Shown: in pieces, positions 45,001-47,505 of the stretch
Numbering within the stretch: the first letter of the stretch is position 1
How the letters are laid out: each line of letters begins with the position of its first letter
NCBI GenBank assembly: GCA_000004695.1
Contig: CM000153.2
Coordinates: forward strand, 768,001 to 832,000
Source of the DNA: Dictyostelium discoideum
Lineage: Eukaryota
Length of the DNA stretch: 64,000 bases
Reading direction: 5' to 3'
Notes under the pieces: model-generated
Told to the model about the DNA's origin: nothing
What the model saw: the letters and a program-made list of their open reading frames with translations, nothing else
The model's database searches: none
Translations under genes and position numbers: made by a program

Positions 45001-45967
45001 ATTATTATTATTATTATTATTATTATTATTATTATTATTATTATTATTATTATTATTATTATTATTATTATTATTACTATTATTATGATTATTATGATTA
45101 TTATTATTATTACAAGAGATGGGCATTGATGGGATTGTTTTATTATTATTACTTTTATTATTATTATTATTACTTTTATTATTATTATTATTATTATTAT
45201 TATTATTATTATTATTATTATTATTATTATTATTATTATTATTATTATTATTATTATTATTATTATTATTATTATTATTATTATTATTATTATTATTATT
45301 ATTAGAGATGGACGTTGATGGAACAGTTTTATTATAAATTGGTTTTAATTTATGTGTACTTGGTAAAGGTTTTTGTAGTTGAGCTTGATAATCATTAAGT
45401 GAAATTTCATCAAGATTTTTTATTATACCAGTACAATTTAATTTAACTAAATCAGGGGAACCATCTGGATTAGAACTAAAGAAACTAGCTAAACTTGAAA
45501 TTTTTTGCATTGATCTTGATTTTTCAACAGAAATTTTTGGACTTCTGCTTTCTTTGTATTTTAAAGATTCCAATACTTTTTCACTAATCGTTTCTTCCAA
45601 TTTTTTAAATTGTCTTTGATATCTATGGAAGGTATTATATGATTTTTCATTAAAATTAGGTAAGAAAATTATTGATACTGATTGAAAACGTAATTGTAAG
45701 TCGATTAAATGTGAATGTTGATCTTTGAAATATTCATTCTTTGCGAATGCCATATCATCATATTGTTCTTTTTTAGAGGAATTATTAAATAAGATGATTA
45801 AATGTGGACTGCATGGATTATTGGTACTATCAGCTGCAATCCGAGAATATTGGACTAATCTATCATAAACATCAGCTCTATTTCCTGCATTGCTATCAAA
45901 TGTAAACACAAATACATCTGAACACAAATATAATAATCTTGGATATGAATATTGAATAAATGGAGTT
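42010..45967 (-). CDS. Array copy 2: RING-like plus patatin phospholipase plus C-terminal domain paralog that lacks the NTPase/zinc-finger exon (5'-truncated)
   Basis: ORF 42010..45927 is ~95-99% identical at nucleotide level to copy 3. Homology continues 5' to a '..attgtag' acceptor at 45968, so no genuine ATG is present. The track's 'M' at 45927 is TTG. The expected upstream exon is missing. Instead the sequence at 46040..46200 matches the promoter-proximal region upstream of copy 3's first exon (52470..52790). Confidence 0.6.
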
Positions 45968-47505
45968 CTACAATAAAAAAAAAAAAATTTGTAAAAAAAA
46001 AATTATTAAAAAAAAAAAAAAAAAAATTTAAAATTTTTTTTCTTTTATCAACTTAAAAATGCTTCCAAATTTTTCCACTTCAAAATTCAACCACTTAAAA
46101 ATGCTTCAAAATTTTTTTTTTTTTTTTTTAAAATCTTAAGTTTGATTTGGGCCAATATTTTTTTTTCAATTTTTAAAAAGAAAATAAAAAAAGGATTAAT
46201 AATAATTAAATTTAAAATTTGATACCAACAATTTTGAATTCTAAAAATAAACTTTTTTTTATTATTTTAAAGTCCCTTCAAATTTTTGTAATTACAAATA
46301 TTAATATGGTGAATTTTATAATTACAAATATTTTTTATTTTTAAAGTCAATACTGTGAGTGTAACTTAGAAAAAAAAAATTTTTATTTCTTTATTTTTTT
46401 TTTTTTTTATTTTAATTTTTTTTATTTTATTTTTTTTCTAAACCCCACAAATATATTTTTTTTTTATTTATTTATTTATTTATTTATTTATTTATTTATT
46501 TTTTTTTTTTTTTTGTATTTATTTTTTTATTCATTTATTTATTTATTTATTTATATATTTATTTATTTTATTTTTTAAATCAAAAATTTTATTTTTAGAA
46601 TTTAATTATTTATCATTCATTTTTAATTATTTTTTTATTTTGAAGAACAACAACTAGTGAATATATTTTATATAAAAAAATTAATTTGGTTGAATTAATT
46701 GTTATATTTTTTTTTTTTTTAAAAAAAAAAAATTTGAATGTTTGAATTAATAAATTAAAAACAACCTATCAAGATTTAATTCATTAATAAAAAAATAAAA
46801 ATAAAATAATTAATTCAGTCATGTTAATTTTTTTTTTCTCAATTGAACCCAAAAAAAAAAAAAAATTAAAAATAATAATAATAATTAAATTCGTTTTTGT
46901 GTATTTTTGGGTGCTTTATTTATCTATACTAAATTCATATTAAAAATTAATAAATTTAAATTGTTATCAATTTTTTTTTTTTTTTTTTTTTTTTTCGGGT
47001 CTAATTTGAATGTTATCATCAATATTCTTCAAAATAAAAAAATAATTACAAGAAATGGATGAAAAATAATTAAATTCTAAAAATAAAATTTGATTTAAAA
47101 AATAAAATAAAAAATTCAAAAAACAGAATGATTACATTCATTTTTTTTAATTTTTATATCATTTTGTGTATTTTTGAGTGCCCTATTTATCTATACTTAA
47201 TTCATATTAAGAATTAATAAATTGTTTGAAAAAAAAAAAATGAAAAATAAAATGAAAAAAAAAATGAAAATTTTTTTTTTTTTTTTTTTTTTTTTGTGTG
47301 TCCAGTTTGAATGTTTTTATAAATATTTTTATTTTTGTTTTTTTTCTATTTTTATTGTTAATTTTTAAAATTTTAGTTCTATTTTTTTTTTTTATTTTTT
47401 TTTTTTTATTATTATTTTGATTATTTAATTTTTTAATTCTATTATTATTTTTATTTTAATTTTTTTATTTATTTTTAATTTTATTATTATTATTATTATT
47501 TTTTT

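Follow-up and report, generated by a model that had tools for sequence, protein, structure and literature searches.

Loss of the first exon from one copy of a tandem GTPase-RING-patatin gene array in Dictyostelium discoideum

Results

A tandem array of B-box/GTPase/RING/patatin genes downstream of calreticulin

We analyzed a 64,000-nucleotide stretch of Dictyostelium discoideum DNA (assembly GCA_000004695.1, contig CM000153.2, positions 768,001 to 832,000; hereafter the window, whose own coordinates are used throughout). The window has a G+C content of ~20% and long Asn-codon repeats, which are Dictyostelium-like. Downstream of a calreticulin gene, three minus-strand paralogues (copies 3, 2 and 1) and one fragment (fragment 0) are arranged in tandem (Table 1). 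Members of this family carry an N-terminal B-box zinc finger, a GBP/atlastin-like GTPase, a RING finger, a patatin lipase, and a conserved C-terminal region with the motif ISGxP. This architecture is found in dictyostelids and fungi (copies 1 and 3; homologues P0006, P0008, P0075, P0004 and others), and literature searches found no characterized member of this B-box/GTPase/RING/patatin family. Copy 1 is intact, encodes 1,312 amino acids, and has ~74% DNA identity to copies 2 and 3. Here we are concerned with copy 2, which has lost its first exon together with the first intron, so that promoter-like DNA now stands directly against the remaining body of the gene.

For comparison, we used a second assembly, GCA_054883475.1 (L003), which is 99.5% identical over window positions 25007..45552, and two relatives, L001 (GCA_054859205.1) and L002, both labeled Dictyostelium (cf.) discoideum and ~90-95% identical in coding regions. 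In copy 3 the intron is 115 nt long with boundaries GTAATT...TTAG, and the ATG lies 736 bp upstream of exon 2; the distance of ~970 bp given for exon 1 in an initial annotation of this locus was too large. The splice model of copy 3 agrees exactly with the independently called products of its orthologues, i.e., 1,391 amino acids in L001 (207 + 1,184) and 1,379 amino acids in L002. Exact-sequence database look-ups gave no match for the protein models of copies 1, 2 or 3 that were tried.

Copy 2 lacks an 871-bp segment that contains exon 1

Copies 2 and 3 are 97.6% identical over 3,906 aligned coding bases, with ~94 coding-sequence differences, and in strict blastn comparisons the two remain collinear between a point ~135 bp beyond the stop codon and 45969 of copy 2, which corresponds to 51487 of copy 3. 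The segment missing from copy 2 is that of copy 3 from 52358 to 51488, i.e., 871 bp composed of ~123 bp of A-rich leader, the 621 bp of exon 1, the 115 bp of intron and the first 12 bp of exon 2. Lost with it are the start codon, the zinc finger, the P-loop, the switch regions, the DSEG motif, the intron and the native splice acceptor. On the upstream side, collinearity passes three poly-T tracts and extends up to a shared ...TTTTATTG; from there, copy 3 proceeds through CACTGCG-A(n) and the leader to its ATG, and copy 2 proceeds to T-AGAACTCC, so that codon 5 of exon 2 is now joined to the upstream poly-T end. At this junction (45971/T/45969), upstream homology stops at 45971 and exon-2 homology begins at 45969, with one filler or mismatched base between them and no microhomology. 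In these features, the junction appears to resemble the end-joining type of deletion.

The junction has also made a TTGTAG acceptor-like site, with TAG at 45970..45968, from the poly-T tract, ATTG, the single T and an AGA codon. Position 45968 had been taken in the initial annotation for the exon-2 acceptor; it is a product of the junction, the native acceptor having been deleted with the first 12 nt of exon 2. Splicing of copy 3 exon 1 (phase 0 donor at 51614) to this site was considered as a candidate and rejected: the product is out of frame, meets a stop after ~23 codons by hand reading, and requires a 5.6-kb intron.

There is no exon-1-like coding sequence in 45970..47505, where all three frames are closed. 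A tblastn search of the whole window with exon 1 matched only copy 3 (52235..51615) and copy 1 (41494..40889). An intact GTPase exon, which would have spoken against a deletion of exon 1, is thus absent from the interval above copy 2. The gap, the junction and the intact orthologues in the relatives together bear out the earlier proposal of a derived deletion of ~0.9 kb that took exon 1 and intron 1 and set upstream promoter-like DNA against the body.

Table 1. Features of the array and of the copy 2 region, in window coordinates.
Feature	Position	Strand	Description
Calreticulin open reading frame	52858..53742		C-terminal end HDEL
Copy 3	52235..47506	-	exon 1 52235..51615, intron 51614..51500, exon 2 from 51499
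Copy 3 exon 1 (207 codons)	51615..52235	-	intact; B-box-type zinc finger, P-loop GTSGSGKST, DSEG
Copy 3 exon 2 up to premature stop	47957..51499	-	frameshift
Last 147 codons of copy 3, now out of frame	47506..47949	-	conserved family-wide
AT-rich spacer, ~930 bp, between copy 3 3' flank and copy 2 upstream region	46437..47369		no coding potential
Hypothetical mini-exon	47125..47141	-	ATGAATGTAATCATTCT followed by GTTTTT
Conserved upstream block, TTTTTAAGTGG-type repeats	46039..46252	-	~92% identical to copy 3 52471..52785 (best sub-block)
Retained poly-T tracts, broken by AATAA and ACAAA	45971..46038	-	collinear with copy 3 52359..52470
Deletion junction, copy 2	45968..45977	-	TTTATTG (45977..45971) + T (45970) + AGA (45969 onward)
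Copy 2	45969..42010	-	open reading frame; residual exon 2 only
Seven out-of-frame ATGs, copy 2	45756..45917	-	45917, 45890, 45872, 45866, 45814, 45761, 45758
First in-frame ATG, copy 2	45751..45753	-	MAFAKNEYF...; would give 1,247 amino acids
Copy 1	41494..37455	-	exon 1 41494..40835, intron 40834..40734, exon 2 40733..37455
Fragment 0	36667..36019	-	C-terminal remnant of a copy-2/3-like gene, ~650 bp; 93-94% DNA identity, own frameshift
C2-domain gene	35052..35468		beyond fragment 0

The deletion divides a single GTPase domain

Exon 1 encodes the B-box zinc finger and the G1-G3 motifs of the GBP/atlastin-like GTPase. Protein searches were made with segments free of low complexity, the whole copy 2 reading frame being swamped by poly-Asn words when used as a query. 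Pfam detected the patatin domain alone (PF01734; E 1.3e-31 for copy 2). The family profile matched B-boxes at the N-terminus (TRIM28, CONSTANS) and RING fingers ahead of the lipase, and its lipase part matched CapV and iPLA2-beta; an exhaustive profile-free search returned 119 homologues at E <= 0.001. The closest full-length homologues match residues ~7-400 as one stretch, and most matches span the exon 1/2 boundary at residue 207. Consensus motifs flank this residue on both sides, with GxxGxGKS and DSEG in exon 1 and YPRLLY.FSDV and LIIxFNK..DD in exon 2. In an AlphaFold model of the copy 3 N-terminus (predicted template modeling score 0.83), residue 207 lies within helix 203-227, between beta3, which carries DSEG, and beta4; the best Foldseek neighbors of this model are GBP1/2/5, atlastin-1, SMG9 and RNF112 (E 6e-8 to 5e-7).

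Copy 2 is without the B-box zinc finger that is present in copies 1 and 3, and without the P-loop and DSEG; it keeps the GTPase from residue 212 onward (beta4-beta6 and helices). Since homologue matches, motifs and model all span the boundary, the deletion halves one GTPase domain and does not remove a module. The choice offered by the initial annotation, between a pseudogene and a truncated, GTPase-less phospholipase, is a fair pair of alternatives, between which sequence alone cannot choose, with the amendment that the GTPase is cut in half.

The upstream region of copy 2 is homologous to that of copy 3

The upstream regions were compared by strict blastn, by local alignment with 30 shuffles and by cross-species matches; a permissive blastn (word size 7, +1/-1) gave hundreds of low-complexity matches. 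Copy 2 45971..46460 aligns with copy 3 52390..52854 with a local score of 265, against a maximum of 58 in the shuffles. Copy 2 46270..46070 also matches, at 81%, the intergenic DNA between calreticulin and the gene in both relatives (L001 2824-3012 and L002 1919-2116), and block 46039..46252 has 90% identity with the orthologous intergenic region in L001. Because the intergenic DNA of both relatives also aligns, the homology of the copy 2 and copy 3 upstream regions is not just that of an AT-rich repeat, and the earlier claim that copy 2 joins its body to DNA like that lying farther upstream in copy 3 holds on this point. The motif cited for it fared less well: the exact 24-mer TTCAACCACTTAAATGCTTCCAAA occurs twice in copy 3 only (52521 and 52653), and copy 2 has versions with indels. 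In copy 3 there is also a ~133-bp tandem duplication, 52487..52576 and 52620..52707, whose units are 96.7% identical and carry one TTCAACCACTTAAATGCTTCCAAA each.

In Dictyostelium, the 3' ends of sense-strand poly-T tracts mark transcription starts (PMC3371697). By this rule, the start of copy 3 falls near 52358, which is where the deletion begins, and since the equivalent tract of copy 2 ends at the junction, a copy 2 transcript start at ~45970 is plausible. The retained poly-T tracts would presumptively be the core promoter, now abutting exon 2. Judged by homology, i.e., by collinearity with the orthologous upstream regions, copy 2 appears to have kept its upstream promoter-like DNA. The TTTTTAAGTGG-type repeats, conserved in copy 2 and in both relatives, may act as a regulatory element. 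Scanning 45500..53000 against Rfam yielded miRNA matches at chance level only, and the window is without tRNA genes, so this upstream block does not correspond to any known RNA gene.

Between this region and the 3' flank of copy 3 lies the AT-rich spacer, which has an internal repeat (46895..46956 and 47162..47223, 92%). No homologue of the spacer was found in the L001 and L002 loci or elsewhere in the window, and a simple tandem duplication does not predict it.

Copy 2 retains an open body without an evident start codon

The residual exon 2 of copy 2 is an uninterrupted frame of 1,319 sense codons and a stop, free of frameshifts and of premature stops. Encoded in it are the GTPase from beta4 on, which is the second half of that domain, linkers of poly-Asn, a RING-like finger, the patatin domain and the conserved C-terminal region. 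The RING motif reads CFGCC...CGHLLCLNC, and the patatin motifs are present as LSLDGGGVRG (oxyanion GGGxRG), GTSAGG (the GxSxG serine) and QDGG (the DGG aspartate). Apart from the +1 of copy 3 itself, every indel that separates copy 2 from copy 3 has a length divisible by three. Very long (AAT)n/poly-Asn tracts lie in the coding regions at 44950..45310 and 50460..50830, and it is there, in frame, that almost all of the length variation between the two copies is found. Residue differences between them include QYSRIAADS and EKSYNTFHR in copy 2 against QYSQVAADS and EKSNNTFHR in copy 3.

The initial annotation had placed no ATG above an internal Met. In frame this is correct, as no in-frame ATG precedes 45753, and there is no ATG at all on the minus strand from 45918 to 46450; seven out-of-frame ATGs, however, do come before the Met (Table 1), and the reading frames opened at 45761 and 45758 overlap it and run beyond. 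Met 45753 is ancestral, as copies 1 and 3 and both outgroups share it. It lies in the context GATGATATGG, which is unlike the A-rich context of real start codons, and it is preceded by 72 orphan codons of the broken GTPase. If transcription begins at or above the junction, scanning would thus reach no usable start codon in copy 2. The out-of-frame ATGs, the poor context of the Met and the bisected domain are evidence against efficient production of a truncated protein.

Copy 3 is frameshifted and probably disabled independently

Copy 3 carries a +1 frameshift in an A5 run at 47984..47988; the run is A4 in copy 2 and in fragment 0. Restoration of the frame by splicing out a 14-nt GT..AG 'intron' was considered and rejected, such an intron being too short. 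Lineage-specific changes were polarized with both outgroup A genes, i.e., the intact family members next to calreticulin in L001 and L002. The copy 3 lineage has 6 synonymous to 31 non-synonymous changes, as under neutrality, with many in the patatin domain, including a cluster of eight in adjacent patatin-domain codons at ~48480..48510; in exon 1, its unique changes are 4 synonymous and 5 non-synonymous. Copy 3, which the initial annotation had used as the intact reference, is therefore itself frameshifted and relaxed-looking.

Gene A was duplicated in the window lineage

In L001 calreticulin is followed by an intact A gene, by B, which has multiple frameshifts, and by the C2 gene, exon 1 being present in both A and B; in L002 it is followed by an intact A gene that has exon 1, by the copy 1 orthologue and by the C2 gene. 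Because the single A orthologue of each relative is intact with exon 1, the loss of exon 1 in copy 2 is derived. Copy 3 matches the 5' side of gene A and copy 2 matches its 3' side, which indicates that A was duplicated in the window lineage and that exon 1 was lost later. The A-type unit, from calreticulin-proximal intergenic DNA to ~135-150 bp past the stop, is found twice in the window, as copies 3 and 2, and array content differs among the three genomes.

Divergence between copies 2 and 3 is mosaic, with 3 mismatches in 1 kb in one part and 18 in 200 bp in another (P about 1e-7 and 3e-6), and dS is 0.03, compared with ~6-16% mismatches in the flanks. The mosaic divergence and the low synonymous divergence point to gene conversion between the two copies, although faster change of AT-rich non-coding DNA may contribute. 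We had considered that the edge of the identity tract coincides with the breakpoint and hence that the deletion predates conversion; this was dropped, as a deletion ending inside a converted tract looks alike.

Several further observations concern the neighboring members. L001 B (8499..11732) keeps exon 1 and has many broken reading frames; between its exon 1 and its body lies ~1.1 kb of unrelated DNA (8875-9968), with a weak MtN3/SWEET Pfam match within the annotated P0003. Fragment 0 is located where pseudogene B ends in L001. The annotation of GCA_054883475.1 seems to merge fragment 0 and copy 1 into a gene of 1,459 amino acids (L003 10981-16385).

Discussion

On balance, we lean toward the reading that copy 2 is a young, headless relic or pseudogene in a birth-and-death array, possibly shaped by gene conversion. 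One end of the 871-bp deletion would lie near the predicted transcription start, and the other 12 nt into exon 2. Lacking a usable start codon and half of the GTPase fold, copy 2 most likely makes no functional protein, and the poly-T/promoter block that it has kept may still drive its transcription. The open frame and the small number of non-synonymous changes would reflect a recent lesion, conversion with copy 3, or both. Copy 3 would have been disabled independently, by the frameshift and with relaxed substitutions, which leaves the more divergent copy 1 as the only one that looks fully intact in this genome. Judged as a pseudogene, copy 2 has lost its start codon, its first exon and part of a domain, and it has neither frameshifts nor premature stops.

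Four observations weigh against this reading. The copy 2 reading frame extends for 3,957 nt without a stop or frameshift; the copy 2 upstream block is still 90% identical to the orthologous block of another species; the annotation of the second assembly calls a 1,324-amino-acid gene at copy 2; and the copy 2 lineage has 10 synonymous to 14 non-synonymous changes against a neutral synonymous fraction of ~0.19-0.20 (P = 0.011-0.013, the former with the spectrum-corrected fraction of 0.19), a pattern which suggests, in a fragile way, purifying selection on the body. The open frame is weak evidence, because ~24 neutral substitutions leave it open with a chance of ~0.23. As for the substitutions, P rises to 0.055 at a neutral synonymous fraction of 0.25, and the difference between the copy 2 and copy 3 patterns (Fisher P = 0.038) falls to P = 0.14 if the cluster of eight changes in copy 3 is counted once. 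The headless body of copy 2 nevertheless looks better preserved than the body of the head-bearing copy 3, and either of two accounts fits this: a recent deletion of a then-working gene, or a truncated gene that still acts.

The second of these accounts has copy 2 functional, as an N-terminally truncated RING-patatin protein of 1,247 amino acids that starts at Met 45753, is expressed from the retained promoter, and acts without GTPase control or modulates its paralogues. The intact reading frame with all patatin catalytic motifs, the ancestral and conserved Met, the contrast of 10:14 with 6:31 in synonymous to non-synonymous changes, and the upstream block and poly-T tracts kept collinear with the orthologous promoter region (read by the poly-T rule of PMC3371697) are all as expected for such a protein. 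Against it stand the seven out-of-frame ATGs before the Met, two of them opening overlapping frames, the lack of an A-rich context, the 72 codons of broken domain left with no clean module boundary, and the weakness of the selection signal; no homologue with the truncated architecture was identified, the short matches being partial or fragmentary and not examined. We hold this account to be possible and the less probable one. A more pointed form of it, in which copy 2 is under selection as a GTPase-less RING-patatin protein started from Met 45753 or through the junction acceptor, and copy 3 keeps its head and decays, we think somewhat less likely still. If it were true, a single deletion would have made an ungated or regulatory paralogue out of a phospholipase gated by its GTPase, within an amoebal family that is like immune effectors in pairing a GBP-like GTPase with a CapV-like lipase. 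As for the labels of decoy or constitutively active form that the initial annotation had offered for copy 2, nothing supports either.

A start codon could also be supplied from elsewhere. Only one ATG in the interval 45970..47505 is followed by a GT donor in the right phase, and its start context is A-rich; the corresponding mini-exon of 17 nt (47141..47125, MNVII + CT), spliced over a 1,157-nt intron to the junction acceptor TTGTAG/A, for which the junction supplies a strong polypyrimidine tract and the AG, would give a protein beginning MNVIILTPFIQ. Its length of exactly 1,324 amino acids is that of the product called in the 99.5%-identical GCA_054883475.1 (L003 gene 16875-20417+), which suggests, indirectly, that the second assembly has the same junction. 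The agreement with the called gene is, however, by length only. The donor, CT/GTTTTT, is weak and unlike the GTAAGT/GTAATT-type donors of the family, the intron is ~10 times as long as the family's introns of 101-115 nt, and gene predictors typically resort to such mini-exons to supply a long reading frame with a start codon; the product would, moreover, still be without the P-loop half of the GTPase. A new first exon of this kind is thus improbable, and the mini-exon is likely a predictor artefact. About as doubtful is the view that there was no discrete deletion, and that the body at 41886..45969 was copied or converted from copy 3 beside an older promoter remnant, with 45969/45970 as the edge of the tract. 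The identity of 97.6% is indeed confined to the coding tract and a short 3' flank, the upstream identity of ~84-92% is near between-species values, and the mosaic identity of the body indicates conversion. The same pattern would arise, however, from a deletion that ends, on its proximal side, within a converted tract, and AT-rich non-coding DNA may diverge faster than synonymous sites. Because upstream collinearity reaches right to TTTTATTG, beyond which the leader follows in copy 3 and L001, a deletion within one ancestral unit is the simpler account. Least credible of all is that exon 1 of copy 2 is real and was collapsed or skipped in assembly among near-identical tandem copies. The 97.6% identity of the copies and the low complexity of the DNA at the junction would favor such an error; yet the joined sequences share no repeat, the upstream region of copy 2 has its own substitutions and indels and is no duplicate of copy 3's, and the second assembly is collinear through copy 2 to 45552, with a 1,324-amino-acid call that fits the same junction.

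The favored reading, of a headless relic in a birth-and-death array, places copy 2 among the duplicated pseudogenes of tandem arrays, whose members bear differing lesions, here the 5' deletion of copy 2, the frameshift of copy 3, fragment 0, and the multiple frameshifts of L001 B. As in other such arrays, copy number varies between related genomes and patchy identity suggests gene conversion. Unlike a typical decayed pseudogene, copy 2 keeps a 1,319-codon frame, promoter-like DNA and a weak signature of constraint.

With respect to domains, the modeled N-terminal fold of the intact paralogues, together with their G1 and DxEG motifs, resembles the GBP/atlastin-like GTPases, including RNF112, which combines a RING with a GBP-like GTPase. 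Unlike GBP, atlastin and RNF112, the present proteins add a B-box finger, a C-terminal RING and patatin, their sequence similarity to solved GTPases is marginal, and copy 2 is without beta1-beta3 and the P-loop. The full patatin domain of copy 2 is like that of patatin-like phospholipases, the best solved relatives being CapV, a bacterial CBASS effector, and iPLA2-beta/PLA2G6. CapV is activated by a cyclic dinucleotide and iPLA2-beta has ankyrin repeats, whereas the partner domains here are the GTPase and the RING. Human IRGM is a truncated immunity-related GTPase gene that is still expressed, and a partial G domain is the main part of it; in copy 2, by contrast, it is the effector part that would remain and the G domain that would be lost. 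The combination of B-box, GBP-like GTPase, RING and patatin has the flavor of an innate-immunity effector design.

For annotation, copy 2 should not be modeled as a full-length gene, the AG at 45968 should not be taken for a real acceptor, and copy 3 should not serve as an intact reference. The loss of exon 1 is most likely ordinary gene decay rather than the origin of a new regulated protein form, i.e., an ordinary event in an uncharacterized family. If the headless copy 2 were expressed, it would be a natural experiment on the effect of the GTPase on the lipase. More broadly, the locus is a compact case of rapid family turnover, in which duplication, probable gene conversion, a 5' deletion, a frameshift and the loss of all but a fragment have acted on a single array.

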